The notes under the pieces are model-generated. The model was not told the origin of the DNA and did not search any database. It was given only the letters and a program-made list of their open reading frames with translations. DNA of 60,474 nt, from positions 1 through 60,474 of the IMG/VR virus record IMGVR_UViG_3300045988_152007. One strand, given 5' to 3'. The translations under genes were made by a program, and so were the position numbers. The DNA is from a virus. Positions 2,466-60,019 of this stretch are shown piece by piece. Each line of letters starts with the position of its first letter. Within the stretch, counting starts at the first letter, position 1.

Positions 2466-2540
2466 TGGCACCGGCTCTCAGAGTCGAACTGAGACTTGCT
2501 GATTTAGAGTCAGCTGAGCTAACCGTTACCCAAAGCCGGA
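2466..2540 (-). tRNA. amber suppressor tRNA, anticodon CUA (reads UAG); U1:U72 mismatch and G73 resemble tRNA-Gln identity
   Basis: Acceptor TCCGGCT/AGCCGGT, D-stem with G-U pairs, anticodon stem GCTGA/TCAGC, loop CTCTAAA, T-arm CTCAG-TTCGACT-CTGAG, G73, CCA encoded. Confidence 0.7.
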
Positions 2541-4040: not shown

Positions 4041-4059
4041 GTTCATTTATTATATATAT

Positions 4060-5618: not shown

Positions 5619-5638
5619 AAGGGTAATTAATTACCCTT
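5619..5638 (-). terminator. hairpin AAGGGTAATTAATTACCCTT downstream of gene 5644..6009
   Basis: Perfect 8-bp stem immediately after the stop codon. Confidence 0.4.
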
Positions 5639-5643
5639 ATTTA

Positions 5644-6009
5644 TTACATTTCCTTAGCGAGTCTTTCAACTACGCTATCATACATTTCCTTACCTCTTGC
5701 ACTATCATTGAAATACACAGTCATATCATCATAATACTTCTGTGCCTTCTCAAGTGCCTTAGCAGCTTCATCAAGCTTCTTAGTAGCACGCTTCAGACGC
5801 TGAGAACTGACCTTCGCCTGGCAACGTGCTGCGGCAAGCTGCTTACCCTTTTCAGTATCAAATGTATCCTTCGGATCACACTTGGCTACACCACGCACAG
5901 TCCTACCAGCATAAGTAGAAACTGCAACAACCTTATACGGCGTACCATCTGCCTTAGTGGGAATAAAATACTTGTACTTATCCAGAGAATATTCCATAAC
6001 TTTTAACAC
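5644..6009 (-). CDS. hypothetical protein (121 aa), GC-richer than neighbours
   Basis: ORF track; promoter motif directly upstream. Confidence 0.6.
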   Translation of the reverse strand: MLKVMEYSLDKYKYFIPTKADGTPYKVVAVSTYAGRTVRGVAKCDPKDTFDTEKGKQLAAARCQAKVSSQRLKRATKKLDEAAKALEKAQKYYDDMTVYFNDSARGKEMYDSVVERLAKEM

Positions 6010-6047
6010 CTTTTTCTCATTTATTTTTTTCTTTATTTTGTATATAT

Positions 6048-6076
6048 ATTATATACTATTTTTTTAATTTTTTCAA
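6048..6076 (-). promoter_or_regulatory. sigma70-type promoter TTGAAA-N17-TATAAT (minus strand)
   Basis: Motif family member. Confidence 0.6.
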
Positions 6077-6191
6077 ATAAAAGAAAATAGCCAAGATTAG
6101 AATTGCCAGCAGTTTTGAGTCCCGGCCATCTAGAATCTATTAACTAGAAACGGTTTTATTAACTATCCAATCTTGGCTAATGGTATAATAA

Positions 6192-6839
6192 TTAAGCATA
6201 TTTCCATTTAAACTTAGCAGCTGTATTTCGTTTACATTTGCATACTTCAGAAATATGTTGTTTTATAGTAGTCATTTTACAATTAGTTAATTTATTTTCT
6301 ACCATAAATTTAGCTGCTTCAGTTGTTGATGGAAAAGTCCTTAAATAATTATCATTTAAATCATACATATTAATTATTTTCCCATACTTATTTTGAACTA
6401 TTTTAGCATTAGGAATAATATCAATTTTATATAATTTTAAAATTTTAGAAACTGAATCTTCACTAATATTTAATTGTTTAGCAGTATCTACAATACATTG
6501 TAAATTCTTATATGTTTCGCATACTAAATCATAGTCAATATATTGTTTGCCATCTCCGCCAATTGTAGCGTTATATCCATATTTAAAAGAACCTAATTTT
6601 TCAATCCAATAAACTTCTTTATCATTAAGTTCTTCTAATGGACATTCCTCTAACTCTTTAATAGAAAAATTTTCTGAACCATATTTATTCATTGCGTCAT
6701 ATAAAGGACGTTTTTCACATCTAGGTTTTTTATAATCTTTAAGATGTTCTTTCCAACGTTCCTAAATATTATTTTTTACTGTTTTACCAACATAAATTTT
6801 TCCATTAATATTATTTGTTATCTAATAAATGTATGCCAT
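6192..6839 (-). CDS. GIY-YIG homing endonuclease (I-TevI-like) with two in-frame TAG
   Basis: N-terminus MAYIYQITNNINGKIYVGKT...ERW matches the I-TevI GIYQI...KVYVGS...KRW motif; a TAG sits at the conserved Q (6822-6824). Confidence 0.8.
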
Positions 6840-11102: not shown

Positions 11103-11360
11103 TATTCTCCTATAGAATATAGCTAATTTGTTAATTTATTTAATTCTTTTGAATAATCTATATTTAAATCTTTTAGTCGTAAATCCTAATTCTATAATAA
11201 ATTTGCTAAGGTATAAATTATTTTTTTATTGACTTCTGGATTTGGTTCTTCTAAAGTAACCATATTATTGTATATAACAAATAATAAATCCATATATCCC
11301 TTATTTTCTTTTATAATATTATTTGTAATTTCTTTTAAAATATTATCTAAATTATCCATT
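11103..11360 (-). CDS. small hypothetical protein (MDNLDNILKE...) with TAGs
   Basis: Hand translation; start overlaps the stop of the upstream gene. Confidence 0.3.
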
Positions 11361-12641
11361 TAAATCATACCCCAATTCTATAGCTATGTTTTCTATTACT
11401 TTTGGTAATATTTTTTGATCTTTCGCACTTTTCAAAACTCCAGTTTCAAAATATAATTTAAATAAATAATTATATTTTTCTTGAAATAAATTACAAACTG
11501 ATAAACAAGGGATAGAAAAATCACCATAAGTTTCTATCTAAGCTCCCAAACATCCTTTAATACAGACATCTCTACACCAGCATTCTAAACATCTTGGAGC
11601 ATAAACAGGGTTAAAAGATTTCATTCCTATATAAGCTGTGGCATTATCACTTATTAAATCAATTATCTCTGTTTTTTCATCATTTATTTTAAAATGTCCA
11701 CCAATTAAATGATTATAACAAGTACGATGACAAGGAACGATAGCTAAATCTCCAACCCTTATATGGACAGTAGACTACAATGCACAGCTTATTCGGTTAT
11801 GTCTGTCTTCTTTATCTGATAAATTCATTAATCGTATAGGATCTCCATTGTGCTCATTAAATGTAGGAGTATTATTAGCCCCATCCCCTTTAAACATTGC
11901 ATAAGCCATAGTATTAATATCATTATTGCAATCATTCAATCTATCTTCAAAGATATGTTTTAAGAATTTTTTATAATTCTCTATAGATTCTTGAGTCCAA
12001 TTATTATTTCGAACTTCTAACATATAAGGAGTTTTCTACCATGAATTGTATTCTTTTAATTTCTTTTTAAACCAATCATAAGTTTTAATGGCTTTATCAA
12101 CATTTTGGCTAGAAATCATAGGATGGAAGCCATCATTATTTTCTGTAGCAAATTCAAATAATTTATTAAAATATTCATCATTTAAATCTTTATGTTCTCT
12201 AAATTCAGTGCTATACGGCCCATCAGTAGAAAATGAAAAATGAATTTCTACATTTATATCTTTCATCTTTTGGATATATTTTTTTATTTTTATTACTTTT
12301 TCATTATCAGAAATAAAACTACCATTAGTAGGTATTACTAGTTTACCTTTTTCTTTTATTTTATAAGCAAATTCATACCATTTTTTTAAATACGGAAAAA
12401 ATACATCTAGTATTTCAAAAATTAATCCATCATAAAATAAGTCTCCGGCGAATAATGACCATTCTAAAGGTTTTATTTGTTTTTTATCAAAATAATCTAA
12501 TAATAATTTTAAATTATCTAATATCTAAGAATTAGAAAAATGTTCTGGATATAATTCTTTGCCATAATTAGTTATATAACAATAATCACATTTTTGATTA
12601 CAGTCTTGTCTTATAATTAATTCTAATATTTCATTTTCCAT
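11352..12641 (-). CDS. radical SAM / SPASM-domain protein (anSME-like peptide-modifying enzyme type), in-frame TAGs
   Basis: N-terminal CNQKCDYC and C-terminal Cys-rich CHRTC...CLECWCRDVCIKGC; merges ORFs 11775..12023 and 12036..12266. Confidence 0.55.
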
Positions 12642-12721
12642 CTTTTTTAATTCATGATTAAAAATAAAATTCTAAAATAGAATATTTTCTTCCTATTGGA
12701 AATCAATAGACGTTGTTATCA

Positions 12722-14155
12722 TTATTTTTCCTCCAAAACTTCTTCAATAATTCCATTACAATATCTTCTTAAAAATCCACTATCTCTAAAGAAATAAGAA
12801 CCAGTACTGATTAAACTGTTAAAAAAGCAAGAATGTATAGGTACTAATAATAATGCTGCTTTCATTAAAAATTTATCATCATTAAATTTTTGACTTATCT
12901 AATGCACTTCTCGTAAATTACATAATAAAGAAACAATCTAATTATATACATAAAAAAAACTAGATACAGATAAAGTTTCAAATAAAAAACAACAATTTTT
13001 TATATCTTCATCTTTATCTTTCAATGGATTTATATAATTATGATGATTTGCGGCAAATTGCTTAATAATCCCAATTTTATCATTAGTATTAATATATTCT
13101 GGATTAGTATCATAAAGAGAACTCTAACAATTTACTAATGTTCCATCATATAAAAGTTTTAAGCTTCCTGTTTTTTCTCCGCAATATAAGAATGGAGTTA
13201 AGTTTCTATTATAATTCTTTAATTCTTTATTAGAGAATGCTAAAACTTTATCAAGAGCTTCATCTAAATTAGAACATTCCAAATTTTTTAATAAAAATTT
13301 TTTTGCTTTTCGAGGTAAACACAATAATCCTTCAATAGAGTCTTTATCTGGATTATTAATTTCTGGATAATGTTCTCCAATTGATTTACAAATTTTTATA
13401 AAATTACTCCAATTAATACCATCAATGCTAGAAGTATTAATAGGTAATTCGCTAGAGAAATTTATAGTATTTTTGATAAAAACAGATTTATTTAGATTTA
13501 AATTAGTTAAATATTGAATTTTTTCATTAGCCTAAATAAAATACTATTCTATTTCTTTGTAATTATTATTAAAATGATTTATGAGTTCATTACTAATAAC
13601 TCCATGAGTATTAAGAGCAATAGTAATATTATTAAAACGAATTGTATTTAAAGTTTCTATTAAATATTTTAAATTATTATATACTACTTTAGAATTAGCT
13701 CTTCTTACATTATCAGTACTATAATCTCCATCATAAGAAAACTAAATACAAATAAATGAATGTTTTTTAGTTAAATTATCAAAAGTTTTTAAAAAATCAA
13801 TTATTTTATCAGTATTAGCCATACCATTAGTAGAAGTAAAAAATTCATTAATATTGGGACATAATTCAAAAAAATCTTTTAAATTTTTAGTAAAATGTTC
13901 TAATACTAATGTAGGTTCTTGACCCCAAAAACTTATTTTATGGATATTTAATGGATCAACTTCTAATTTTTTCATAACATTTTTAATATTCTATAAATAA
14001 CTTCCATCTTTAAGAGCCTTTATAGTCTATTCTTGTAACTATTTACTATATTCATTTACAGCCTAAGCTGAATGACAATATTTACAATTTAAATTACATC
14101 CACAAGCTCCAATAATAGATAATTCTTCTATTGAAAAATCCGATATATATTTCAT
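12722..14155 (-). CDS. radical SAM protein 2, in-frame TAGs
   Basis: GACGCNLNCKYCH cluster near the N-terminus; ISFWGQEPTL glycine-rich SAM motif; merges ORFs 13124..13324 and 13742..13975. Confidence 0.5.
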
Positions 14156-14175
14156 TCCTTTTTCTCCTTTAAATG

Positions 14176-14691
14176 TTAAGTGTGACTAGAACCGTAATGA
14201 CTAGAGCATCCATGAGATGTACACCAGGTTTGATTAACCCCTGACCAATAGGAAGAATGATAACCTGAACCATCATGAGAAGAATTATAAGAAGTATCCC
14301 ATCCTGCTCCATAATTAGAACTATCCCAACTACTATTATATCCACTACCTCTATGGCTAGCATTATAACTCGCATCATGAGCGCAAGTATCATTTATGCT
14401 TCTAATTGTAGTAGTAAATCTATTAAAAATAATAGGACTAATTAAATCTCCTGCCGAAGGAGGATTTTCACTAATATTTGCTCTTGAACCAACATAACTG
14501 CTACTGGAAAAAGATTCTATATACTTATTTAAATTCTGAGCTAATTGAGCCATAGCTTGTGTTGACTATCCTCCAGGAGTCGCTTGAAAATCACTCTAAC
14601 TAGGGAAAAATTTTTTTCTTGCGGTATTTAAATTAGTAAAAATAGTCTAAATATCACTCCAATTTATTTTAGAGTTTGAACTAATTGCCAT
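14176..14691 (-). CDS. Ser/Gly/Tyr/His-rich small protein with Cys-containing C-terminus (possible modified-peptide substrate)
   Basis: ORF 14176..14553 extends through TAGs to ATG 14689-14691 after GGAGG. Confidence 0.5.
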
Positions 14692-15745
14692 ATTTTTCCT
14701 CCTCGTATTTTATAAAATCAATATACTCTTTGTTAATAAATTGTTTAATTAGTTTATTATTATCAAGTATATGATTTCCTTTATTAAATAGACTATTTAA
14801 ATTAAATAATACAGTATTATTTAATTTAATAAAATCTTCTTTTTTTATTTTATTTAATAAATCTTTATAAAACAATGATAACTTATTAAACAAAATTTTA
14901 TCATTAATTAAAATTAAACAAATAAGACTTAAACAAATTGCTTCTTCTTGTTTTATATCTTTTAGATATTCTTTGTCTTTATCAGTTACTTCTTCTATTA
15001 TAGATAAATTTACAATAATTTTATTAAAAATATGTTCGAAAATAAAATGATTATTTTCATATTTTTTATTTGTTAAATATTGTCTATAAAAATAAGTAAA
15101 AACAATTAATTCATTTATTGTCATATATAAAAAATTAATATCTTTACCCATACTTTCATTATTTCTATTATATACGTAAATAGGCTATTCTAAGAAGGGA
15201 ATTGCACCATTATAAAAATCAAAAATCTATAATGATAAAAATCTATCTTCATTATAAATAAATTTGCCATAAGAAAAATTATTTTTTATAAAAAATTCTC
15301 TATTATATAAATAACTATGAGCGTCATGGATAAATTCATTTTTATCATAGGTCTATCCATTTACAATTCCATAATTATTATTTTCAGCATATATATATAA
15401 ATTTTCTAAAGCCTTATTATCATAAAAATAATCATCACTATCTAAACAGAAAAAATACTTATTGAAGCTATTATTAATTCCTAGAGTCCTAGCTGATGCA
15501 GGGCCTGATTTAGTTTTCTAAGTATCTAATAATATTATATTGTATATATTATTATAAGTTTTATAAAATTCATATACATATTTTTTATCTGGAGAATTAT
15601 CACTAATTAAATAGATTACACAATCATTAATAATACTTTGTTTAAAGACAGAATCTAAACATTTCTAAAAATATATTTTATTTATTGTATAAAAAGGAAT
15701 TATAATATCAATTTTTCCTTCGTTGCGCTTTCTAAATGTCCTCAT
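14681..15745 (-). CDS. family 2 glycosyltransferase-like protein; may be the C-terminal part of a fusion with the upstream radical SAM domain
   Basis: IIIPFY...DSDDYF (DXD) motifs; frame is continuous with 15746..16645 when TAG is sense. Confidence 0.45.
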
Positions 15746-16645
15746 TTTATCAGGAGCATACCAAGAATCAACGTTATTCCAAGATTTCTTTTTTGAAAAA
15801 TCCTAAAAATTAGAAAAATCAACAAATTTTTTATAATATTCATTATAATTTGTTAAGAATAATTCTTTTTCTGTTTTAGTATATTCATCATAAGTTTTAG
15901 TCGATTGATCCCAATCAACCACATCTCCTGGCCGACAATATTTACATATATTTTTTTCACATAATTTTAAATTCTATAAATCTTGTAAATTTGTTTTTTC
16001 TGTTAGTTTTATAAAATCTTTATTTTCTATTAATGGAATTTGTTTAAAAAAATAATTACAAAAATTATTTATGTGTGCCCCAAACTGACAAAAATATATT
16101 TTAAAATCTTTTAATGTAAAGCAAGGAATCCTATTTGGACAACTATATATACGAGTTTTATTATCTTGTTTACCTAAAGGGTCAACCAATGTCTAATCAA
16201 AGAAAAATCTATCATTTAAATATGAGATATTTTTATTATTGCTAAAATCTTTGTAGTCTTGATTAGGATATTTAGAAATACTTATATGTATATTTAATTC
16301 TTCTAATTTTTTTAATTTTTTTGTATCATAATTATTTAAAATTATACCATTAGTTAATATCTTTATTTCTATCTCTGGGAGAATATTTCTAGCTATCTAA
16401 CATAATTCTATTAAATTAGGATGTAAAAATGGTTCTCCCCCTAATAGCATTAAAACTTTAATAGAAGGCAAAGTTTTTTTTACTAATTTTAGCTAATTTT
16501 GAAAATCTTCGTAAGTAATAAAAAATGGAGAAGCCAAAGGAGAAAAATGATTACAATTATTACATTGTAAGTTGCAATGGTCTACTAAATGAATTTCTAA
16601 TTCAAATCCATCAAAAACTGTAGGCCAAAATGCTCTAGTAGGTCC
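15746..16645 (-). CDS. radical SAM domain protein 3, possible GTG start
   Basis: LVDHCNLQCNNCNHF and MLLGGEPFLHP motifs; same frame as ORF 15974..16189. Confidence 0.4.
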
Positions 16646-16746
16646 ATCTCTATACTAATTTATTTTATTCACCTTCTTTTTTTATTATTATATAAAAAAA
16701 ATGCTTGAAAAGCAAATTTTAAGAACAAGCTTTTCAAGCATTGATG

Positions 16747-17695: not shown

Positions 17696-17707
17696 ATTTT
17701 ATAATGC

Positions 17708-20428
17708 CTAACTCCATGTGTTTGCGGCAGTTTTTGCCCATATACCTTTTATTTTATGCCAGCCGGTCAAGGTAACAGCAGGTCCGCCAGTGAAGGTGCC
17801 TGTTCCGGCGTTTTTATAGAATACTTTATTTATTTTATCCCATAGACCATAAATATTAGTTGTAGTTTTAACTGGAATAAAATCGCGGACTAAAGTGTTT
17901 CCATCATAAATTTGACAAGAATATAATTTTGCACTTAAAAAGTATTTAGCGGTTCCAACATCATTTAATGCCAATAAAAACATATTAGTTGTAGCATTTA
18001 CTGTGCTAGAAGTATTGGTAATCATAATATTATTAAATGAACATATATTTTTATTTTTATCAATATTTGTTATTTGCATAACAGTAGGAGTTTCAGCAGT
18101 TAATGATGAACCAAAATAATCACTACGATATAATGTAGCGGCTGGAATTGCAGCATTATAAGCTTGAGAAGCAGTAGGAAAAGTAGCATTTCTTGTGCCA
18201 AAAAATGCACTCCAAGTACTCCAAGACATTGGTTCAGCTTTCATAATAGTGCGAGTTGTAGCTTTGGGAATAAAATTACTATCAATATACTATGTGCCAC
18301 TAGACTATATATATTCAATCGGTGTTCCTATTGCTGCAATAGCAGATTTTTCTGTGCCTGCTGTAAAATTGCCACCATTTTCATCAGTATAAAATTTAAG
18401 ATTAACTTTATCCCATAAGCCAGCTTTCCCATCAGATATCCTTCTAGCTGGGATGAAATCACGAACTAATGTACCATTATCATATATTTTACAAGAATAT
18501 AATTTCATTGAAGCTTTATTATAATTGCCACCATTATTTACACTAAATAAATATAAATTATTTCCATCCTTTGAGAAATCACTAGAATTTGGAGTAACAG
18601 TTATTTTGCTAGTGTCAATGCTCCATATATTATTAGTATTATTTGAAATATATTTTCTTTTCCCAGTTAATTCTGCAAGCGTTTTATTATTACTTCCATA
18701 ATAAGCATACATAGTCGTATTTTGTCTCCACCAAGAAAAATATGAACCACTAGTATAATCACCTAGTATCATAACCCATCCACTCGCAGCAGATACATCT
18801 ATATCAGCTTCAACCTTTAGGTTTTTTGAAGCTTTAATGCCAGTGTCAATATATTGTGTACCGGTACTTTCAATGTATTCTAATTCAACTAATCCACTAG
18901 AAATAGTAGTACTACTTCCAGTATTTACGAACATTTGTACTGGTTCTTTCCAATTATTCGAAGTAGTTTTCACTAAAGTATTTCCAGAACTAGCTTCTAT
19001 AACGGTAATACGTATATAGCCATTACCTGCATGGCCTGTTTCACTTGTACCTGTTGGAGAAATAAATGCAGCATTTCCTGCTAATATAGTAGCATTAGTT
19101 AAATAATAAGATGAATTCAATAAACAACCAGAAGGATAATAAGAGGCTGAGCTGGAAGTGTACATATAACCAGAACCACCACCTCCAACACCGATAGCAC
19201 CACCGCCGCCATACCAGCCGCCGCCCCCTCCTGAGCCATAATAAGTGTTTGAACCACTATTATAATTTCCACCTTGTCCGAAGCTTCCTGCAGTAGTATA
19301 ATTAGAATAACTAGTATTTGCTGCACCACCCTAGGTTTGGCTACCACCACCACCATACCAGCTGCTACCACTAGATGAGTCTTGATTATTATATGTCTTG
19401 CCTGATATTCCTCCACCAGCAAAACCAGCCAAACTAGTATAGCCACTAGAACCACTGCCACCACCAGCGACTAAAACTCTAGCATATAAAGAATCGACAG
19501 CAATGCGAATATCTGTGCCGCCGCCACCGCTTCCTCGACTATTAACTGAGGTAGCAGAACCGCCTCCATTGAATCCTCCAGCAGTGGTTGCTCCATTTGA
19601 ATTATAAGTAGTTCCATTAAGGCCCTATCCACCGGTATATAAATATAAATTAGTTTTCTTATTTAGAGTTATAATTCCTTTACTATAACCGCCTTTACCG
19701 CCAGGCTAGGAAGTATTATTAGTTCCATTGCCTCCCTAGGCGCCCCAGCATTCTAATTGATACTATCCTTTTGGAAGAATTACTGATTTCATAGACCCAC
19801 TATAAGGACAATTTAATATATCACCAGTCTATATTTTTGTAGGAGTTGTAACAGTTAAATCATATTTATTAGGAGCTTCATATTGAATTGTTTTATTACC
19901 AGCAAAATATTCAATATTAGTATTGCACCATTCCTGAGTAGGTTCATTACCTGTGCCGAATGCAGCAGTTAAATCAATAAGCATAGCATCATCAATATAT
20001 GCTACTGTATTTCCCACCATGCCTTCAAAATCAAATCTAAATTGAGCTGTCTAATTATCATTCCAGTTAGCACGTACATTATGCCAACTTAATCGCTGCC
20101 ATTGATTTAATTTAGTTTTATCTACTTTAGCAATACCTACTAATGGTTCTGCTATTGGCCAATAACATTGCATTTCAGAACATACATTAACAGTTTCATA
20201 AAAATAAACACTTATATAATATATATGATTTTTTCTGATAGCATATGTGTCAGAGGTTACAATTAATGATTTAGAACTTGAGGTAGATGTGACTTTTAAG
20301 CTATAAGAGCCGGAATGTTTAGGAGAGGTGGCGTAACTAACTGAGCAAGCTGAATTAGCAGTCCAACCTGTCTTTTCAAAACTTGGATTAGTTAATAAAT
20401 TAGTTAAAGTAATTGTTTGTTTTGCCAA
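17708..20428 (-). CDS. large tail fibre (907 aa): N-terminal CBM-like domain, Gly-rich region, two C-terminal repeats (LYSC.IYD.GTLVRDFIP...GLWDK.N..FY); many in-frame TAG
   Basis: 2721 nt, exactly in frame from ATG 20428 to the stop at 17708; joins ORFs 20051..20428, 19829..20020, 18305..19165 and 17708..18244. Confidence 0.6.
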
Positions 20429-37011: not shown

Positions 37012-37159
37012 TGGTGGGGCCGGTTGGATTCGAACCAACGATTTGGCAATTTGGCCCAAAATGTTAGGTTTGAACTCACATCTTTCTTGCGCATAGACTA
37101 TTTTACCATTTAAACTAATCTTGGATAAGTTGCCGGCCTTACCGCTTGGCCACGACCCC
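37012..37159 (-). tRNA. tRNA with Gln-like D-arm split by a 73-nt anticodon-loop insertion (37055..37127); anticodon CCA under the U/G boundary rule, UCA or UAA under others
   Basis: Exon1 GGGGTCG-TG-GCC-AAGCGGTAA-GGC-C-GGCAA-CT; exon2 CCAAA-TTGCC-AAATC-GTTGG-TTCGAAT-CCAAC-CGGCCCC-A-CCA. Confidence 0.45.
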
Positions 37160-37575: not shown

Positions 37576-37604
37576 ATTATATATTAATTTTTATTAAATA
37601 TCAA
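37576..37604 (-). promoter_or_regulatory. sigma70-type promoter TTGATA-N17-TATAAT (minus strand)
   Basis: Motif family member. Confidence 0.5.
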
Positions 37605-38281
37605 ATTTATAAATTTTTTCTTGTGAATGATTATCAATAATTTCAATTAATTCATTAAGATAATTTTTATTTTCTGCAACTTTATCAATTTCAATAGCTA
37701 AATTTAAAGCTGTATAACTAAAAGAGAGCTATTCTTTAATTCCAGGAATTTTTTTTATTTCTTCAGTAAATTGCTATAAATTACTTTTATTCAAATAAAA
37801 ATTTCCCAACAATAAAAATAAATTAGTTTTACCATTAATTAAAAAATAAATCTAATCTAAAATTTTCCAAAATTGTTTATCTATTTTTTTAAAATTATTA
37901 AATAGCAATTTTAAACAATAATTTATATAACTAATATTTTGTTCAAAATTAAAATTATTAAAATCAGTATATATTAACTAATTATCAAAATTATAATTAT
38001 TATTAATAATCTACAATAATAATTTATATCTATTAATAAAAATTTTATCTTGAATTTCCATAATTTTATATAATTCTATACCTTTATATTGTTTTAATAT
38101 ATCCTTATGTAAAATATATTTTTGACATAAATATTCATAAACAGATAAAATCTAAATATCCATATTATATTTTTGAAAATTTATATTCTTATAATTACTT
38201 ATACAAAATAAAATATTATCTTGTATAAGATACATATAATATATCTTACAGTTATATGTATTTTCGATAAATATTTTTAAA

Positions 38282-38932
38282 TTATAATGGTTCATTTCTA
38301 CCTGTGCCACTACATGTGCCAGTACAGCTTTTACATAAACCTGAACAACTTCCTCCACACAATCCAGTACAATCGTTAGCACAATGTCTTGTACAGCTAC
38401 CACTGCATCCACTACATCCTGTATAGCATCCACCTGAGCAAGAACCACTACATCCGCTACAGCTACCACTACAACTGCTTCGACATCCGCCTCTGCAAGT
38501 GTTTTGACAACCTCCTTGGCAAGTATTCTTACAACTACCTAAACAAGTTCCCTAACATTGTACTCCACAACTTTCGCTACAACTGGTAGAACATAATCCA
38601 GTGCAATAAGCTGAACATCCAGTATTCGAATCAGTTAATCCCATAGCTTGATAAGCTGTAATTTTTGCCTCTAATGTACTTAAATCATCATCTTTAATAA
38701 CATTTATATTTTCATTCTGATTTTCAATATTTATTGCCGCCATAGGTTCTACCAGTTTTGTTATGTGTTCTTTTGAAATAACTTTTCCATTATCAGGCTA
38801 AGTAGTATAATCATAAGAAGTCCCTCCATATGAACTTACACTACCGGTATATTTACGACGTAAACATTCAGCCTTTATTTTTTTCTTTAATTCATTGAAT
38901 CTATCAGAAGTTATTGTCGTTCCTATTTTCAT
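38282..38932 (-). CDS. Cys-rich repetitive protein (216 aa; about 30 Cys in the C-terminal 110 aa with GCSGSCSG-type repeats), one TAG; candidate radical-SAM substrate
   Basis: 651 nt in frame; AAGGAGA before ATG; contains ORF 38552..38743, which ends in TAG. Confidence 0.55.
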
Positions 38933-40244
38933 TTGTCATTGTCTCCTTTATTATATTATATTCATCCTAAGAGATAATTTTTAATGCTTTTTCCCTATCT
39001 CCATTAAATTTAAATCGTTTATTCGAGTTTATTTTTTTTAAAATAGAATTTAAATAATATAAAGAAGCTAGAACTGTAGCATAATGCATATCACAAATAT
39101 AAGTAACTCTTTTATTAACATTACCTGTTTCTTGATAATTATAAGCTGTACACCAAGAGCATCCTCCAGAAATTTCACAATCTAAACATTCTTGAGGAGA
39201 TTGACTAATAACTGTTATTTCAGATAAATCTTTTAATCTATTGATGGTTAAATTATCTTGGCCTATTCCCTAATAAATATCTCCAATATAATATTCTGGC
39301 TGATTACTTATGCTATCTTCCATATAACGTAAACATGGATAATATTTACCTTTCCAATTTAAGGCTAACATACGACCATTCCCGCCACACCAATTATCAT
39401 TAGATAAATTTTTACTTCCATCATTAATATAAAAAATAGATAAATAAACTTTATCCCACAAATCATTATTTAATAAATAATCAGCAATTTTTTTTAACTA
39501 ATAATATAATGTAGTGGCATGGTTAAGTTCCCAACCTTTTTCATACACACAATTTAGATTGATTTGACTATAACCATTGTTTATCATTTCTAAAACAGCG
39601 TCATATAAATAATCTATATTAAATGGAGAGATAGTCATTTTACTCCCAATCCATTTATTATAATTATGACTATAATGTAATGCGGCAGACAATGCTTTAT
39701 CATAACTACCACTACCATCAGGGAAAACTCTACAAGCGTCATGTAATTTTTTATTTCCATCAATAGAAATTGATAAACTTAAATTTTCATTATTTTTTTT
39801 AATATACTCTTGTACTTTTTGTTCAAAATATAAAATACCATTAGAACTAATTGAAATTTTATATTTAGTAGCCCAAGGATGCCGCAATTCAATCATTTTA
39901 TTAATAAAATAATCAGTAATCTAATCAATTAATTCAATTTCTAAAAATGGCTCTCCACCTATAAATTCTATTATTACTCCTGGTATTTTATAAGAATCAA
40001 TATAACCAATAATTTTATTATCTCTGGTTAATATCTAATCAATCATCTGTTTAGCTGTTTCAAAAGATAATTTATGTTTACCTTTATGCCCTTGATAACA
40101 ATAAGTACAATTTAAACAACAATCATCTGTAACCTAAAATGTTAATGTAAATACAGACTAAGAATTTAAACAATCTTCAGGATATAAACGACCTATAAAA
40201 TCAGAAAATTCTTCAGGAATGTGGCTTATTTTAGGAAATAACAT
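38904..40244 (-). CDS. radical SAM / SPASM-domain maturase-like protein (446 aa), in-frame TAGs
   Basis: CLNCTYCY, GGEPFL and a C-terminal Cys cluster (CGGNG...CLDCE..GGCSWC); 1341 nt in frame; joins ORFs 39498..39896 and 39270..39461. Confidence 0.6.
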
Positions 40245-40512
40245 CAATAATTACCTCATTTGTATAAAAATCTAAATTCCAATTGCAAGTTTGATTCCCA
40301 ATTTCTGGTTTGATATAATTATTTTCTAATTCTAATTTAGCTAATTCATATTCAGCAAATAATTCTATATACTCATTATGATAATCATCAAAAGCTTTAT
40401 TTCTAATATTTTGTCTAATTAAAAATTGACATAAATTTTTTCTAGCTTCAATTTCATAATTTAATTTCTAAAGATAATTTACTTCTTCTTGAGGAATTAT
40501 AATCTTCTTCAT
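40231..40512 (-). CDS. small hypothetical protein (93 aa), one TAG
   Basis: ATG 40510-40512; ends 14 nt inside the radical SAM gene start. Confidence 0.35.
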
Positions 40513-40620
40513 ATTTTTTATTCCTTTCTTATATAAGAAATTTAATTATTTAATTAATATAATATACCCTATATAAATAATTATAACATAAAAATAAGAG
40601 AAAGTCAATTTGACTTTCTC

Positions 40621-40929
40621 TTATAAACCAAGCTTTTCAATTAAAGCTTTTAAATTTTCTTCTTCTTCTGGACTAATTTCTGTAGCCTTCTTTACAGACT
40701 GAATTGTTGCACCATCTTCAAAATTAAGTTCATTATTACCAAAATCCATAGAACCAAAATTTTCCACAGGAGTTTTCGGACAAGTTAAACTAATTGCAAT
40801 CTGAATATATTGTCCATTTTCTTTAGCTCGCACATAATACTTTTTATCATAAGATCCGAGGAAATCTTCACCAAATGCTTCTGCAATTTTTTCTACAACA
40901 GCATCTTTAGCAATACTACCTTTTGCCAT
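40621..40929 (-). CDS. hypothetical protein (102 aa)
   Basis: ORF track. Confidence 0.55.
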   Translation of the reverse strand: MAKGSIAKDAVVEKIAEAFGEDFLGSYDKKYYVRAKENGQYIQIAISLTCPKTPVENFGSMDFGNNELNFEDGATIQSVKKATEISPEEEENLKALIEKLGL

Positions 40930-42251
40930 TATTCATTCTCCCTATCAAATAAAATTTCATCATAACAAGCTTCACAATAGTAAGCATTGTTTTCTTCATC
41001 ATAAATTAAATCTTTTTTATCATAATACATATTACAATTATCACATATCTAATAATTGTCTCCGCAACTACGGCATACATAACCATCATCATCATCTAAT
41101 GATATTGCTTCAGGAATATAAATACGTCTACCGCACTCTCTACAGAAAGTAAAATCTTCTGTTTCTTCTGTACCATATTTAAGTTCGCAATCAATACAAA
41201 GCATTGTATCTGTTAAAACACAATCATTTTTACCACAAATACAGCATTTTACATCATGTCCTATATTAACTTTAGTAGTGGTACGAGTTCTTGGAAGAAT
41301 TAACTTATCTTGTGGAATACCTTCTTCATGCCAATAAGGTTCACTATAAGCAATACTAAACCAATAGTCATATACAGTAGAATGAAGAGGGTCATTGTAA
41401 TGCAAAGGATTTTTTGGGTCAACAATAACCTTAATATCTGGGGTCATTACGTATCCCGTAGGCAATAAACGAACTTCATTAGAAAAAATTTTATCATTTA
41501 TTGTAAATGTATTATATTTTTCATGACACCAATCAGTAAAACGGTATCCTTGCCCGAAAAATGTTTCATACAGTTCAAGAGCAAAATCTTGTAATCCTTT
41601 ACTTTCATAAGGATAATGCCGACCTGAAATAACCATAGTATCATCATCAGACACATGAAGAAGCATACGCCACTTCTTATCCACCCATGGCACATCATCT
41701 GGAAATCTAGGTAAAACTGCGTCATGTTCACTCTTAATATAACATATAATTGTACAATTATCTGCCATATAAGATAAATTACCAGCCCGATATTCTCCAT
41801 CAAGTGCATGGCATGACCGCCAGTTATGCGTATTTTCACTTAAACTAAGATAATCCAATGGATGAACTGACATACAAAAATATCCACTAATTTTTGTATT
41901 CTGAATGAGCATACTGGCTTTATCTTGTATTTCAGTAAGAATTTCCTTATCTTCTACAAAATATTTAAATGCTTTAATTATTTTCATTCCTTTTGGAATG
42001 ATAGTTCCATTATTCATTGGATAATCTTCGCTTAAAATATTATTATAAAAATCTTTTCTATTATTTTCAACAAAATCTCTTAATTCAAATAAGCCATAAC
42101 GCCAACGAATGTTGTCAATAAAACAATCTAATTCAGCTTTTTTATCATCTTCTGAAATAGACATTGTAATAGGTGCATGGCTTTGATAAATTAATTTATT
42201 ACCAGGAAGCCTGCTATAAAATTTGCATTTATTCTCTTCCCAATCATTCAT
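40929..42251 (-). CDS. paralog family B protein (HPLDY...W.SC core plus C-terminal CxxC zinc-ribbon repeats), 440 aa with one TAG
   Basis: ORF 41049..42251 ends in TAG and continues to TAA 40929-40931. Confidence 0.6.
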
Positions 42252-42331
42252 TAATTTATCAATATTTAAAAGGTTAATATCCAGCCCCTATGAATAGGCA
42301 ATAACCTTCTTTACTTGTTCTTTAATTTCAT

Positions 42332-43330
42332 TTAAATTACAACAGGGACTCGACATTTATTACATACTCTTTCTTTCATATTATTTGAATAAAATAAATT
42401 ATAACATCTTTCACATTGATGAATATTAGGATCAAGTGCTAAACATTCAGGACATACATGGACCTTTACTCCATCAATATCAAGAGGAAAATCTTCCCAC
42501 TCATAATATAACTGATTACAAAAACTACAATTAAGAAGTTTATCATCATCAAAATCATAAGGCATATGATATTTATTAGTTAATGTAATCCACTGAAGAT
42601 ATTCCTTGCTAGGAATAAATTTATATTTATCTGCATTTTCGATATCATCAAGCATTTTACATACTTTATTAATTGTATTATACAATGTTCTAATATGCAA
42701 ATCTTCATTTTGAGTATGTTCATGATGATAGCCAACTGATAAATTTACTCCGGCAATTTCCCATTCAGGCATAATAATACTAATATCTGTAAATGATCCA
42801 ATTGCTTGCTTAAAGCCGAAACTTTCAACATAATCCATGAACGTAAAATTTTCACACTCATAGAAGACACAATCTCTTTCACCAGCTCTATCAAGCTCAA
42901 TCATGTACTTAATATTTGGAGCTACTGGATGTTCTTCAACAAATATATGTGCCCCATAGCCACCCATTTCTTCATCTGTTGTAAAAAGAACATAAGGTCT
43001 ATACTTTTTGCGTAAAATCTGAATAATCGCAAAAACACCTGCTCTATCATCTGCTCCAAGACCTTCCTTGCCTTTATAAACAGCTCTTTTCTCATTATAA
43101 GTAAATTGACGAATTGGCTGTCTAAATACAGTATCTACATGTGCGATAAGCATAACAGGAATATTGCCTTCAGCATATACATAATCTTCTGTAATCTCTA
43201 CATTAGAATATTTATTAGATACAAAATCACCAAGAGCTTTCAAAAGACCTACTTCGCTAATCTTGAATAGTCCTTCCAAAAGCCCTCTACAATTTTCAGT
43301 AAACTCAGGAACTAAAACTTTTTTACCCAT
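42332..43330 (-). CDS. M20/M42-like metallopeptidase-domain protein with a C-terminal zinc ribbon
   Basis: ORF track 332 aa; motifs LIAHVDTV and GADDRAG; C-terminal CPEC...CERC...CNKC. Confidence 0.55.
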   Translation of the reverse strand: MGKKVLVPEFTENCRGLLEGLFKISEVGLLKALGDFVSNKYSNVEITEDYVYAEGNIPVMLIAHVDTVFRQPIRQFTYNEKRAVYKGKEGLGADDRAGVFAIIQILRKKYRPYVLFTTDEEMGGYGAHIFVEEHPVAPNIKYMIELDRAGERDCVFYECENFTFMDYVESFGFKQAIGSFTDISIIMPEWEIAGVNLSVGYHHEHTQNEDLHIRTLYNTINKVCKMLDDIENADKYKFIPSKEYLQWITLTNKYHMPYDFDDDKLLNCSFCNQLYYEWEDFPLDIDGVKVHVCPECLALDPNIHQCERCYNLFYSNNMKERVCNKCRVPVVI

Positions 43331-44846: not shown

Positions 44847-46490
44847 TTAAATCGCGATTGACCTATTGTAACTATAAAAACGCTCAGGATAACGACGAAT
44901 AGCATAAGTATAATCAGTAATTATAGTAGAATAAGGATCATTAGAAATTATCTTTTTAGCCTCTACATTTAAATCATCTTCTTCAATTAAAAGAGCCACC
45001 ATACCATAATAAGGACCGCCATCCAATCGAATTGTTTCAGCTCTAATATCAGTATCTCCAAGATACTTTAAATATTCTTTATTAGCAAGACATTCACTAC
45101 AAATATAATGTTCATCATAATCAATATTAATAGTTTGATTTTCAATATGTCCAACAAATACAGTAGTGAAATCTTCATCAAAATGAGCATCCTCACAGCA
45201 TAAGCATCTATGCAAATCATGATAACAATCTTCGCAAACCAATTCACCATCTACTTCAATTGCATCATTTGCATTAACTCGTTCGCCACAGCAATAACAA
45301 TAAGTGGGTGGATCACAGTCTTCACAAACCACCATTTCAGTATCATCAGACCAATAAGCATCCTCGCCGCAGCACATACAAGTCATTAAACCAGAATAAT
45401 TAATTGTAAATGTACGATATTTATTGTTTGGTGAATTAATTGAAAAAATTCCATAATTCTCTGTATTACCAAAATCATTATACATTTCATTTGTTGCAAA
45501 ATCCAACAGAAAATGATTATTCTTATCTTCTTTATCTTGCCAAGCTCCAATATAAGAGCAACTTTCCAAACTCTCTTGTGGCTTTTTTCTGTTATAACGC
45601 CATTCAGTTTTTTCTTCAACCAAATCAACAAGCCAATTTACAAGAGCTTTATCAAATGCAATATTATAATAAGGATAAGATTTTACAGAACAAATAGCAT
45701 TCGGATGGACAATAATTAATTCTCTCCAGCTTTTAGAAGTCCATTCAATAGAAGTGTTTGCTGGATAATAAGGTTTAGTAGTAATATATGCTATAACAAC
45801 TAATGGACTATTCATCATCTCAATAGTACCAGCACGATAACTTCCTGGTCCTTGAGTCCAGTTCATACAACTTTCCCATCCATTTGCATTATCGCTCATA
45901 GTCATATAATCCAAAGGATGAATAGATAGAGTAAATTTGATTTTAGATTTGCGTACTTCGGTAATACGTGAAATATGATTGCGGAAAATTTCAAAATCAG
46001 GTAAATCAAATTCTTTAGCCATTTTTTGAAGAACTTTCATTACCTTGGCTCCTTCTGGAACTTTAACTGCCTTACCATCTTTATTATGATAAATAAATCC
46101 TTTAGCAACTCTATTAGTAAAAAGTTGATAAGCTTGAATTAAATTATATATTGCATGTTTTGTTGCATAACTATCGTCAAAATAAATATTATTAAGCTCA
46201 AATAACTTACGAAGATTCTTAATAAAATTAATACCAGGATTAAAACTATAGAGATATTCACTAACTTCTCTTATTTTTTTATTATCTCCATCTTCAACCT
46301 GGATTTCCTTCTCCAGCATTAACTTTTCACCAAAAATATCAAACAGAGTTTGCTTACTCTTATTCCATTCTCGAAGGATATAATCAAGAGGGGCTTTAAG
46401 TTTAACGGGGGAATTAATGCCACCCCATTTTTCAATATATTCAGTAATATATTTCTTATCTTGGGCCGTTAATGCTTCATAAGGTGTCAT
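44847..46490 (-). CDS. paralog family B protein (547 aa)
   Basis: ORF track; SIHPLDYMTMSDNANGWESCMNW motif plus C-terminal CxxC repeats. Confidence 0.7.
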   Translation of the reverse strand: MTPYEALTAQDKKYITEYIEKWGGINSPVKLKAPLDYILREWNKSKQTLFDIFGEKLMLEKEIQVEDGDNKKIREVSEYLYSFNPGINFIKNLRKLFELNNIYFDDSYATKHAIYNLIQAYQLFTNRVAKGFIYHNKDGKAVKVPEGAKVMKVLQKMAKEFDLPDFEIFRNHISRITEVRKSKIKFTLSIHPLDYMTMSDNANGWESCMNWTQGPGSYRAGTIEMMNSPLVVIAYITTKPYYPANTSIEWTSKSWRELIIVHPNAICSVKSYPYYNIAFDKALVNWLVDLVEEKTEWRYNRKKPQESLESCSYIGAWQDKEDKNNHFLLDFATNEMYNDFGNTENYGIFSINSPNNKYRTFTINYSGLMTCMCCGEDAYWSDDTEMVVCEDCDPPTYCYCCGERVNANDAIEVDGELVCEDCYHDLHRCLCCEDAHFDEDFTTVFVGHIENQTINIDYDEHYICSECLANKEYLKYLGDTDIRAETIRLDGGPYYGMVALLIEEDDLNVEAKKIISNDPYSTIITDYTYAIRRYPERFYSYNRSIAI

Positions 46491-50762: not shown

Positions 50763-50841
50763 ATCTCTCCCATCCTTTCTATATATATTATATCAAATTT
50801 TTTATAAATTTTCGAGTATTCAATTTTGGCAAGAATTTAAA

Positions 50842-52506
50842 CTAAACATAATCATCAGGATAAGTCGCCTTTAGCCGCATCTTGGCATCAGCAATTCTTT
50901 CAAGGGACAGAAATGGCTCCCATACCTTTTTATCTGCCTTGTCAACATCAATATACTGAAAATCGCCCCACAAGTCTGGCTCCTTCGGTGCATCACCAAA
51001 ATCATAATCTTCATAACAATCATCACAGACATCAATGGGATTTCCAACATCACGACGATGCTTACCATTAGGAGTTTTTACTTCAAACATATAGGGAAGA
51101 GCCTGCTTCTTGAAATCATAATCAAGCCATTTAGTTTCTCCGCAACAGCTACAAGTCTGAGTGCGGCCATCTGCACACCAGCTACAATAAGTTGCACCGT
51201 CCCCTTCACAGAACCAAGCATCTTCACTATCAATCCAAGAGCCACAATCATCACACTGGACTTTGCCTTCACAGGTTGCACATACGACTTTATCACATTC
51301 TACAAATGCATCTACATTTCCACTCGGATCAGCTTCATAGCCTTTACCGCAGCACATACATTCAGCTACACCAGAATAGTAAACTTCTACTTCTTTTACT
51401 TCTGGATTGATATAAGCATAATGATTATCATAATAATCATTATACATAGCTCCAGTTCTCATGCGGATATAAACCTGACCAAAATCAGTATCATTGCTCT
51501 GATTCTGCCAAACCTCATACATCTTATCGTCGTAATGCCAGCCCATATTCTGTTCAGCTAACTGCTTAATTTTATTCAGCACATAATCACGCAGATAAAT
51601 ATTGTTATAAGGATACTGCTTAATTTCAGTGATAATATCCTTATTAACAATATAAAGACACCGCCAACGCTTATTACTCCAAGTTCTTTTGTCACGGTCA
51701 ATAGGACAATAAGGATGCTCGGATTCAACATATGCTTCAAGGATGACAGGAGAATTCATCATTTCAACAGTGCCAAGACGATAATCACCGCCCTGATACC
51801 AGTTCATACAACTCTCCCAATCACAAGCATTATCACTCATAGTAAGATAATCAAGCGGATGAATAGAGAGTACAATATCAGCATTAATCATACGATCATT
51901 CAAAACACGCGAATGAAGAATACGAAACTGCTCAAATGCTTCTTTATCCAGCTCAAACCAATCGACAATTTTAGCCATCATTCGCATCAGCTTCATATCA
52001 CTCTTCAACTCAAGCGGCTTCGAAGTATCTGCATGCGGACCACGGCGAATAACAACAGATTTGCGACCCCAATCAAACATATATACATTTTTATTGGCTA
52101 CGAGAGATTCACTATCAAGGCAATGGTCAATCATGCTACAACAATTAACACGTTCATCTTTATCAAGAGTGGTATCCATCCAAGAATAATAAATATTAGT
52201 AATTTGCTCGTAAGAATCAATGAATTTTTTGACGTTTGCTAATTCAGGATTATTATAAATTTCTTCATACATTTCACCGAATTTATCCATCAAATCATCT
52301 CCAGATGCCTGATAGGAAATATGGTCTTCGACCATCAAATTATTACCAAGCAACTCATACAGGTCAGGCTTTTCAGCAGCCCAAAACCGCAGAAGATGAT
52401 TAATTTCATCTACAGTGCAGTAATTATCAGAATGAAGGTACTCTTTAATATAATCATGCAGCAGATTCTTTTCTTCTTCTGGAATGAGTGTCCTCAAATC
52501 TGTCAT
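50842..52506 (-). CDS. paralog family B protein (554 aa)
   Basis: ORF track; SIHPLDYLTMSDNACDWESCMNW motif plus C-terminal CxxC repeats. Confidence 0.7.
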   Translation of the reverse strand: MTDLRTLIPEEEKNLLHDYIKEYLHSDNYCTVDEINHLLRFWAAEKPDLYELLGNNLMVEDHISYQASGDDLMDKFGEMYEEIYNNPELANVKKFIDSYEQITNIYYSWMDTTLDKDERVNCCSMIDHCLDSESLVANKNVYMFDWGRKSVVIRRGPHADTSKPLELKSDMKLMRMMAKIVDWFELDKEAFEQFRILHSRVLNDRMINADIVLSIHPLDYLTMSDNACDWESCMNWYQGGDYRLGTVEMMNSPVILEAYVESEHPYCPIDRDKRTWSNKRWRCLYIVNKDIITEIKQYPYNNIYLRDYVLNKIKQLAEQNMGWHYDDKMYEVWQNQSNDTDFGQVYIRMRTGAMYNDYYDNHYAYINPEVKEVEVYYSGVAECMCCGKGYEADPSGNVDAFVECDKVVCATCEGKVQCDDCGSWIDSEDAWFCEGDGATYCSWCADGRTQTCSCCGETKWLDYDFKKQALPYMFEVKTPNGKHRRDVGNPIDVCDDCYEDYDFGDAPKEPDLWGDFQYIDVDKADKKVWEPFLSLERIADAKMRLKATYPDDYV

Positions 52507-58861: not shown

Positions 58862-60019
58862 TTAGTTCTCCTTTTTAAAATCAAAAATTGTTTTTAATTC
58901 TTCTACTTTATCAAGCTGTTCCCAAGGGCTATTACATTCAATACGACCAAAATGACCGAAGCAAGCATAGGGTAAATAGCGAGTATGTTTTAAATCAAAT
59001 TTATGAATAATACTACGCGGTGCAAAATCAAATGTCTGATTAACTGCTTCAAGAATTTCAGCGATAGGTTTCTTTTCTGTACCAAAACAATTAATATTAA
59101 TAGATACAGGTTCTGTCTGCCCAATAATATAAGCAACTTGAATCATACATTTATTACAAACACCAGAAGCTACAAGATTTTTAGCTACATAACGTGCCAT
59201 ATAAGCACCAGACCTATCTACTTTACAGGGCGACTTCCCTGAAAAACATCCCCCACCATGTGGAGCATAACCACCATATGTATCTACGACGATTTTACGT
59301 CCGGTTAATCCAATGTCAGCCGCAGGTCCACCAATTACGAATCTGCCTGTTGGGTTAATATAAAATTTACAATCTTTCTTAATGGCATAACCTTGAAGGG
59401 CAATATTACAAATGTTTGTAATATCGGGTGTTATTTCCTTAATACTATATTTGTCTTTGTGTTGGGCCGATACGACAATTGTATCTACCCCTTCAAAGTT
59501 GCCATCATCATCGTATTGGACAGTTATCTGACATTTGCCGTCAGGTAATGCCCAAGGTAGCAAATCATTTTTATACTTACTAAACATAATGACCGAGATA
59601 TTGTTAGCAAGTTGCTGGGCAATAGGCATATAATTTTCTGTTTCGTTAGTTGCATAACCAAACATCATGCCTTGATCTCCAGCACCATCCCTATCGACAC
59701 CCGCAGCGATGTCAGGGGATTGATTTACTACATTAATAATATATGAACAAGTGTCGCAGTTAAATCCTGCTTCATCATTGTCATAACCAATAAATCTTAA
59801 AGTCTCTCTTGCAATTTCCTGATAAGGAATAGATTGTTCTGTTTTAGCTGTAATCTCTCCCATGATGTGGAAAAGACCTGGACTAATAGTACATTCACAA
59901 GCTACTCGTGCATCAGGGTCAAGCTGGAGGACATAATCCAGAATAGCATCACTTACCTAATCACAAACCTTATCAGGGTGACCGGCAAAAACGCTCTCAC
60001 TGGTAAATAAATAACTCAT
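58862..60019 (-). CDS. metK: S-adenosylmethionine synthetase (MetK), 385 aa, with an in-frame TAG at 59957-59959 at the conserved Gln
   Basis: ORF 58862..59863 carries GAGDQGMMFGYA, GGPAADIGLTGRKIVVDTYGG and GGGCFSGK.P.KVDRSGAY; the upstream frame through the TAG gives [28 protein letters not shown], the MetK N-terminus; GGAGG precedes ATG 60017-60019. Confidence 0.8.

Follow-up and report, generated by a model that had tools for sequence, protein, structure and literature searches.

A TAG-recoded CXXX-repeat cassette in a phage genome: a cysteine-repeat protein, a radical-SAM/SPASM enzyme and an accessory protein with a possible link to tail fibres

Results and Discussion

Three overlapping genes read with TAG as a sense codon

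The IMG/VR virus record IMGVR_UViG_3300045988_152007 was analysed from position 1 to 60,474, and this whole stretch of 60,474 nt is called the window below. On its minus strand lie three genes that encode, in the direction of transcription, an accessory protein of 93 aa (40231..40512), a radical S-adenosylmethionine (SAM) enzyme of the SPASM type of 446 aa (38904..40244) and a Cys-rich protein of 216 aa (38282..38932). The first two genes overlap by 14 nt and the last two by 29 nt, and the three constitute a translationally coupled cassette, whose products very probably all belong to the CXXX-repeat system. A preliminary description of this DNA had reported a radical-SAM/SPASM maturase adjoining a Cys-rich substrate, which is confirmed here. 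The two open reading frames (ORFs) on which it was based exist with the 29-nt overlap; however, they are on the minus strand and are open only if TAG is translated, and the Cys-rich gene, which had been placed upstream of the maturase gene, is downstream of it in transcription. The accessory gene had been overlooked in that description.

Under the standard code, the ORFs of the Cys-rich protein and the enzyme appear as fragments only, and every internal stop is TAG. In-frame TAG occurs at codons 45 and 127 of the 216 codons of the Cys-rich gene, at codons 29, 37, 70, 108, 249, 325 and 426 of the 446 codons of the enzyme gene, and once (codon 15) in the accessory gene. With TAG treated as open, the ORFs of the window that reach 100 aa or more add up to 57 kb, compared with 34 kb under the standard code, and a tRNA with anticodon CTA is encoded at 2466..2540 on the minus strand (ARAGORN; Rfam tRNA model, 49 bits). 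Among 57 homologues of the enzyme from standard-code phages, glutamine is aligned to TAG codon 37 in 52, to codon 249 in 38 and to codon 108 in 26; in addition, codon 127 of the Cys-rich gene, TAG in the window, is CAG in a near-identical strain. On these four grounds (the gain in ORF length, the tRNA, the glutamines of the homologues and the CAG of the sister strain) an artefact of reading through genuine stops was rejected, and the window genome reads TAG as a sense codon that corresponds to glutamine in homologues. Gut phages in which suppressor tRNAs recode UAG to glutamine have been described (PMC10879173, PMC11210395).

Since all three cassette genes contain TAG, the suppressor tRNA is needed for their translation, while most ORFs at 44-60 kb lack in-frame TAG, suggesting that the cassette is expressed in a late, suppressor-dependent phase. 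The cassette genes are invisible to gene callers that use the standard code, and the same Cys-rich gene is stored in the protein collection both as a 44-aa fragment and as a 216-aa protein.

The radical-SAM enzyme

The enzyme matches the NCBIfam model TIGR04115, titled "radical SAM peptide maturase, CXXX-repeat target family", with 431.3 bits (cut-off 350; E 3.7e-129) over model positions 3-359 of 359. As the preliminary description had read from the sequence, it carries the cluster motif (C42-x3-C46-x2-C49), a GGEPFL motif starting at residue 96, and a C-terminal multi-Cys domain with seven cysteines (286, 304, 353, 356, 362, 365 and 384, including a Cx2Cx5Cx2C pattern). It thus combines the CX3CX2C motif with the seven-Cys SPASM motif of two auxiliary clusters that define radical-SAM/SPASM enzymes. 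Pfam Radical_SAM (29.7 bits, cut-off 29.5) and Fer4_12 (24.7 bits) are both above their cut-offs, Pfam SPASM (16 bits) is below its cut-off of 21.5, and the best PHROG is phrog_1802 (E 1e-63). The phage enzymes are approximately 35-37% identical to the bacterial-type enzyme.

Other maturase families scored below their cut-offs: PapB (NF047865) 161.9 bits against 340, the SCIFF maturase (TIGR03974) 108.4 bits against 425, CcpM 101 bits, and QhpD 84 bits against 453. The preliminary description had proposed a precursor-maturase pair of the SCIFF/ranthipeptide type and a profile comparison as a check. The comparison went against the proposal: the enzyme passes TIGR04115 and fails the SCIFF and PapB cut-offs, the Cys-rich protein has no match to the SCIFF precursor model TIGR03973 at E <= 1, and the cassette has a third conserved component. 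An anaerobic sulfatase-maturing enzyme, mentioned there as an alternative, is excluded (TIGR03942, 64.7 bits against 349.45), and no sulfatase-like gene was noted among the annotated neighbouring ORFs. The next-best families, namely PapB, the SCIFF maturase, CcpM and QhpD, are all formers of Cys thioethers, and the nearest solved structure is that of CteB (5WGG, E 5.8e-21). By this analogy, the window enzyme would form thioethers as well, which we rate as somewhat more probable than not. The alignment with CteB begins at CteB residue 94, and the N-terminal ~93 residues outside it are presumably the RiPP (a ribosomally made peptide that is modified after translation) recognition element (RRE) domain.

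In some related phages the radical-SAM gene is interrupted by intein-like insertions located exactly at catalytic cysteines. Two loci, L073 (7155-8903) and L038 (9418-11808), have the insertion at the third Cys of CX3CX2C (CSY/CLTGDT…VHN/CYQGHKG), and a third, L075 (9788-12127), has it at the first SPASM Cys (NWC/…SSN/CGGTGAML). The inserts of L038 and L075 are long enough for a homing-endonuclease-like part.

The accessory protein

The 93-aa protein has no direct match in NCBIfam, Pfam or PHROGs. A profile seeded with it detected a relative at 83 of 87 loci, where the loci compared with the window were drawn from 79 IMG/VR loci, five metagenomic loci and two GenBank contigs. The relatives are always encoded directly 5' of the radical-SAM gene or are fused to the N-terminus of its product (L001-3, L009, L015, L017/18, L031-34 and L076). 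At a bacterial-type locus, L086, the relative was found with E 5e-17 in this search and scores 104.6 bits (cut-off 50) on TIGR04116, titled "CXXX repeat peptide modification system protein". When searched against a large protein database, the accessory-family profile collected 6447 proteins, several of which their sources call CXXX repeat (peptide) modification system protein. The 93-aa ORF can thus be classed as a divergent member of the TIGR04116-type accessory family, by profile linkage and not by the curated model.

The AlphaFold2 (AF2) model of the accessory protein reaches a predicted local distance difference test (pLDDT) value of 94.6, and its elements follow one another as a strand, two helices and two strands. 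This differs from the PqqD-like winged helix of an RRE, with three strands followed by three helices, and a fold search with the model returned generic helical hairpins only.

The Cys-rich protein

The Cys-rich protein contains 28 cysteines, 27 of which are within residues 106-207 (38312..38617, minus strand), close to the estimate of about 30 in the last 110 residues made earlier. In this region (26% Cys), the spacing between successive cysteines is four residues in 23 cases and three residues in three cases. In comparison, the other long ORFs of the window have a mean Cys content of 2.2%, giving a binomial tail of ~2e-21 for 27 cysteines in 102 residues. The protein passes TIGR04114 marginally (20.6 bits, cut-off 20, in three stretches) and matches phrog_6085 (E 1.4e-7), and most of its 574 database homologues have a precomputed match to Pfam PF27846 (tSAM_targ_Cxxx_rpt). 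The repeat region opens with a conserved junction, C.AxCTGLCSTSC, continues with the consensus C-[S/T]-G-[S/G/T] and contains a single Asp in its 102 residues; it is followed by a short tail (SGTGRNEPL) and a TAA stop codon (38282..38311, minus strand).

Over 237 family proteins, one Cys follows another at a spacing of four in 84% of cases and of three in 14%, the X positions are mostly S/T, G and S/G/T, and no conserved acceptor residue was found in the repeats. Only the Cys period is conserved, so that links to carbons of the backbone or of neighbouring repeats are more plausible than links to a specific side chain. Tandem Repeats Finder detected only two short, weak repeats in the DNA, and hence it is the protein repeat that is conserved, and no recent expansion of the DNA accounts for it.

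The N-terminal 105 residues (38618..38932, minus strand) form a separate, conserved domain, referred to here as the N-domain. It is characterized by the motif F..LK..VKAEC.RRKY.GSV..YGG..YDY...P, includes the peptides AECLR and YTGSVSSYGGTSYDYTTQPDNGK, and has four residues (E22, R25, R26 and P63) that are invariant in both alignments, A1 and A2. The AF2 model, with block-mean pLDDT values of 72-92 over residues 11-100, confidently predicts a small helical domain of ~100 aa with helices at 9-25, 54-67, 69-73 and 81-96. Searched with Foldseek, this model has no relative among PDB structures (best E 3.2), and its BFVD matches are all family members. In the relatives, which are 151-442 aa long (fusions reach 1582 aa), the N-domain is constant, while the number of repeat cysteines ranges from 11 (L072, L075 and L079) to 86 (L048). 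With its 216 aa the window protein is outside the range of the short peptides of TIGR04117 and TIGR04118 (about 46-100 aa), and the substrate is a protein with a folded domain, not a small peptide.

Related loci and distribution

Of 84 loci, 80 have a radical-SAM gene within ~1.5 kb of the Cys-rich gene and on its strand. Dereplication of the loci at 70% identity left 31 lineages, on which the following counts are based. The enzyme is present in 28 lineages, and the accessory protein, separate or fused, in 29. Of the three lineages without the enzyme, two are truncated by contig ends, and only one (L043) lacks it despite full flanks. The gene order of the window, accessory-enzyme-substrate, is found in 10 lineages, and the order substrate, an ORF of ~170-200 aa, accessory, enzyme in 18.

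The ~170-200-aa ORF always lies directly after the Cys-rich gene, in both gene orders. The window copy is at 37594-38163 (minus strand), and others, likewise without family match, were seen in L001, L003, L004, L010, L016, L063 and L085. It was not included as a fourth cassette gene, since it falls into three subfamilies that could not be linked by hidden Markov model (HMM) iteration or hhalign (probability <1%). It could be a fast-evolving fourth partner, or its position could be a coincidence.

At 50% identity and E <= 1e-30 the phage branch falls into 175 clusters, and at 90% identity into more than 570. Among 185,579 bacterial and archaeal species genomes there were only five matches, all on small contigs of metagenome-assembled genomes (Ruminococcus, Clostridium, Clostridia and Mollicutes), which indicates that the family is essentially phage-borne. 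Close relatives of the window's Cys-rich protein are on contigs of 185-190 kb, and the genome of the window phage, a gut phage, is probably of about this size.

L086 (MT837480.1) represents the bacterial type; its contig was deposited as "Bacteriophage sp." and looks bacterial. Its CXXX-repeat protein has the same junction (C..SC.GLC..TC) and repeats, and a twin-arginine (Tat) signal peptide in place of the N-domain. The genes at 2222-6270 encode, in order, this Tat-signal protein, the maturase, a 321-aa protein with 12 Cys, the TIGR04116 accessory protein, TatA and TatC. This arrangement shows that the bacterial form of the system exports its product via Tat, and the signal together with tatA and tatC would agree with folding or cross-linking of the product ahead of export. 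Accessory protein and enzyme are present in this system although it does without the N-domain, which is therefore unlikely to be the element recognized by the maturase; the junction seems the better candidate.

Tail-fibre neighbourhood and fusion proteins

In 19 of the 31 lineages, the gene immediately upstream of the cassette encodes a protein with the C-terminal motif LLWIDT..G.LKYY....W..V, which Pfam assigns to Phage_tail_C in two loci. In four further lineages a PHROG tail-fibre or virion structural gene is directly upstream, so that a gene of this kind precedes the cassette in at least 23 of 31 lineages. Related loci also have genes for portal, capsid, collagen-like fibre and endolysin proteins near the cassette.

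A full HMMER scan of 1.84 billion representative proteins revealed fusions. In P0334, the N-domain and the repeats are joined to a domain that is also the N-terminal one of a 909-aa fibre-like protein of the window (17699..20428; 32% identity, E 3e-16), and accessory protein and enzyme are retained downstream. In P0392 an extra domain is inserted within the N-domain, and in P0260 (1582 aa) and P0361 (with immunoglobulin-like repeats) the repeat module is carried by large multi-domain proteins.

Surroundings of the cassette in the window

A terminator-like hairpin with a 14-bp stem followed by a T run (40594..40624, minus strand) ends the gene preceding the cassette and sets the cassette's upstream limit. 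Directly after this gene's terminator comes a promoter-like site (TTGACT, 17 nt, TG-n-TATAAT; 40580..40608, minus strand) with 11 of 12 matches to the consensus, suggesting that the cassette is a transcription unit of its own. The cassette region has two terminator-like sites, for which shuffles give an expectation of 0.7, and the number of promoter-like sites was not above the shuffled expectation. The ORF just upstream of the cassette (40621-40929, minus strand; 102 aa) has no TAG and no family match, and a relative of it is also upstream of the cassette in L066 (5523-5831), another large TAG-recoded phage. Further upstream are three paralogous-looking ORFs of 475-572 aa (40929-42356, 44847-46490 and 50788-52506, minus strand), whose C-terminal Cys-x2-Cys clusters resemble zinc ribbons; the first matches phrog_18912, of unknown function, and an M28-type peptidase-like ORF (42332..43330) adjoins these zinc-ribbon-like ORFs.

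The cassette is followed by a 189-aa ORF and then by a 7-kb island of tRNAs and HNH and GIY-YIG endonucleases. At the edge of this island near the cassette, an Rfam tRNA match that extends over 145 nt (37015-37159, minus strand) and is absent from the ARAGORN calls probably represents a tRNA gene that contains an intron or is interrupted in another way. The tail-fibre module of the window (17.1-30.2 kb) lies beyond the island, and two of its proteins end in the same LLWIDT..G.LKYY....W..V motif. At the tRNA-rich end of the window, the suppressor tRNA is flanked by a full-length ROOL RNA (3430-4023, minus strand; RF03087, 323 bits) and on the other side by a RAGATH-33 RNA (1417-1529, minus strand; 139 bits).

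Three further radical-SAM ORFs (11352-12722, 12722-14224 and 14669-16672, minus strand) are within an island of 19-26% GC at 7-17 kb, and none of them is above any NCBIfam cut-off. The preliminary description had regarded the cassette as a second, independent instance of its kind in the window. This could not be reproduced, and a second Cys-rich substrate for the other three genes was rejected, as none is present among the window ORFs of at least 20 aa. The ORF at 14669-16672 also matches the glycosyltransferase families NodC and TuaG at residues 308-446, below their cut-offs, and the island contains three ORFs of 282-310 aa that are paralogous by eye. The window also encodes a MetK-like S-adenosylmethionine synthetase at 58862-60019 (minus strand; phrog_1569, E 6.7e-117), recognizable as such by its N-terminal sequence, from which the four radical-SAM enzymes of the window could plausibly obtain their SAM.

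A cross-linked virion protein as the favoured interpretation

We favour, at about even confidence, the interpretation that the Cys-rich protein is made late, is associated with the virion and has its repeats covalently cross-linked, probably by thioethers, through the action of a three-gene CXXX-repeat cassette. In this scheme, the suppressor tRNA would let TAG be read as glutamine late in infection, and the three cassette proteins would be made together. The enzyme, aided by the accessory protein, would then work along the C-terminal array of 27 cysteines. The accessory protein would fill the position of the substrate-recognition domain of related maturases, where it is fused in some phages. 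SAM would be cleaved to a 5'-deoxyadenosyl radical, hydrogen would be abstracted from the peptide, and Cys sulfurs would be joined to nearby carbons. The likely products are thioether cross-links that would turn the repeats into a covalently stapled, redox-insensitive rod or knot. The N-domain, which is dispensable in the bacterial versions, may anchor or oligomerize the product on the virion, most likely on or beside the tail fibre.

The upstream fibre genes, the fusions to fibre domains and the variation in repeat length on a constant N-domain argue for the virion and tail-fibre role, to which, as a prediction from gene context, we assign slightly less than even confidence. The bacterial counterpart, with its Tat signal replacing the N-domain, fits both cross-linking before export and an N-domain that is not the recognition element. 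The more specific picture, in which many uncultured gut phages use a dedicated radical-SAM enzyme to convert the Cys-repeat protein into a poly-thioether "ladder" forming part of the tail-fibre apparatus, is possible but doubtful. The preliminary description had set against its own proposal the case of a structural, metal-binding virion protein with homologues that lack radical-SAM neighbours. The virion half of this is in line with the tail-fibre context; the other half is not, given the enzyme in 28 of 31 lineages and the cut contigs behind two of the three exceptions. Probably "structural protein" and "maturase substrate" are both right.

Several observations weigh against the favoured interpretation. 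In the window itself the cassette is not directly beside a fibre gene, and its upstream neighbours are not recognizably structural. Moreover, the slot between tail-fibre and lysis genes also hosts non-structural accessory genes in phages, and neighbourhood alone is therefore weak evidence. The N-domain has no detectable structural similarity to known fibre or adaptor domains in the PDB or BFVD, and the repeat region is modelled by AF2 at pLDDT 32-46, i.e., with no confident fold. A tblastn search of GenBank phages with the whole Cys-rich protein or the N-domain gave no match, although MT835573 holds a family member; since it does, the null result is probably due to the low-complexity filter and sequence divergence. 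By this search no cultured GenBank phage has the N-domain. Finally, no experiment on any member of the CXXX-repeat family was found in the literature searched, so that the reaction is deduced from relatives only; the same literature gave no publication on the CXXX-repeat system and nothing relevant on SPASM proteins with tail fibres, phage-encoded RiPPs or radical-SAM enzymes together with recoding.

Among the alternatives, a released RiPP-like product survives best, and we consider it unlikely. Here the N-domain would be an unusually long leader to which accessory protein and enzyme bind, and the modified Cys-rich part, cleaved off or not, would be freed at lysis and target other bacteria or the host, e.g. 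as a bacteriocin, a signal or a metal chelator. The relatives of the enzyme are indeed RiPP maturases, NCBIfam calls small members of the substrate family RiPPs (TIGR04118), and a leader-plus-core layout with a conserved junction resembles the long leaders of the Nif11 and NHLP types. However, no protease or exporter gene was noted among the cassette neighbours in the inspected loci, and the bacterial system functions without the N-domain. An eight-fold variation in repeat number, with low-complexity S/G/T at the X positions, is also unlike a target-specific bioactive peptide, and the fusions to large multi-domain proteins and the tight linkage to fibre genes speak for a different use of the module.

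An intracellular late function, either as an anti-defence or host-takeover factor or as a fibre assembly chaperone outside the virion, appears improbable. Genes directly after tail-fibre genes often encode fibre assembly chaperones, and the non-structural upstream neighbours in the window would agree with such a role, but chaperones are not known to require dozens of modified cysteines, the fusions place the module at the end of large fibre-like or immunoglobulin-repeat proteins, and the bacterial relative is exported.

There is a still smaller chance that the protein binds metal or iron-sulfur clusters in the manner of a metallothionein, its thiolates holding the metal while the radical-SAM enzyme does something other than cross-linking or uses the protein as a cluster or sulfur donor. 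The Cys content of the repeat region, the Tat export of the bacterial counterpart (a route typical of cofactor-containing proteins), the failure of AF2 to predict a fold without ligands and the need of all four radical-SAM gene products of the window for Fe-S clusters would be explained in this way. Nevertheless, the near-obligate pairing with a SPASM enzyme of the peptide-maturase type and an accessory protein would not, no metallothionein or Fe-S scaffold family was matched in Pfam or NCBIfam, and the strict period of four residues is unlike known metal-binding Cys motifs.

A strict SCIFF/ranthipeptide pair shares the overall logic and has PapB and the SCIFF maturase as next-best families, but it is very improbable in view of their scores (162 of 340 and 108 of 425 bits, far under the curated cut-offs), the lack of a SCIFF-precursor match at E <= 1, a substrate of 216 aa with 28 Cys, and the single Asp of the repeat region, because of which Cys-Asp links of the PapB type cannot be general.

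The CXXX-repeat family is already curated, and the NCBI annotation pipeline would name the enzyme correctly if given the right genetic code. What seems new is a phage branch with a protein-sized substrate, a novel N-domain and placement in tail-fibre modules across at least 31 lineages, together with the fusions to fibre-like domains and, in the window, the dependence on TAG recoding. The system is widespread, as seen from the 6447 accessory-family proteins, many of them from gut Bacteroidales, and the phage branch offers a compact three-gene unit with a protein-sized substrate in a clear biological setting. If the favoured interpretation is true, the product would be the first virion component cross-linked by a radical enzyme and would add radical-SAM chemistry to the ways in which viruses harden their particles. 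Phages of strict anaerobes would gain a disulfide-like rigidity that withstands both the reducing cytoplasm and an oxidizing exterior. This would also help to explain the abundance of radical-SAM genes in phages of anaerobes, and would provide a new genetically encoded, redox-proof, cross-linked repeat scaffold.

Comparison with known systems

The bacterial CXXX-repeat system has been defined by comparative genomics and consists of a TIGR04115 maturase, substrates of TIGR04114, TIGR04117 and TIGR04118 (PF27846) and a TIGR04116 accessory protein; to our knowledge, it has had no biochemical characterization to date. The window cassette resembles it in having the three components, co-directional and overlapping, with the enzyme above the curated cut-off, and shares with L086 the repeat with Cys at every fourth position and the junction motif. 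In contrast to the bacterial system, the phage substrate has a folded domain of ~100 aa instead of a signal peptide or short leader, the phage cassette is found in tail-fibre modules and requires TAG suppression in the window, and the phage accessory protein is too divergent for a direct TIGR04116 match.

With CteB/SCIFF and PapB/freyrasin, the window pair shares the radical-SAM core, the SPASM domain with two auxiliary clusters and a Cys-rich substrate. However, a separate 93-aa protein of different predicted fold occupies the position of the N-terminal region of CteB, and the 27 repeat cysteines belong to a protein-sized substrate in which no acceptor side chain is conserved. A precedent for a structural protein substrate is found in QhpD/QhpC, where a SPASM radical-SAM enzyme cross-links Cys within a protein subunit of quinohemoprotein amine dehydrogenase and not in a secreted peptide. 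There is no dehydrogenase context here, and in QhpC a small number of defined Cys-Asp/Glu links takes the place of a periodic array.

As to hardening of the particle, the capsid "chainmail" of phage HK97 is formed by autocatalytic Lys-Asn isopeptide bonds between capsid subunits. Should the favoured interpretation hold, the likeness, which is an analogy only, would be that a virion component is hardened by covalent cross-links; whereas the HK97 bonds form autocatalytically, the cross-links proposed here would be made by a dedicated radical enzyme in a Cys-repeat protein associated with the fibre.

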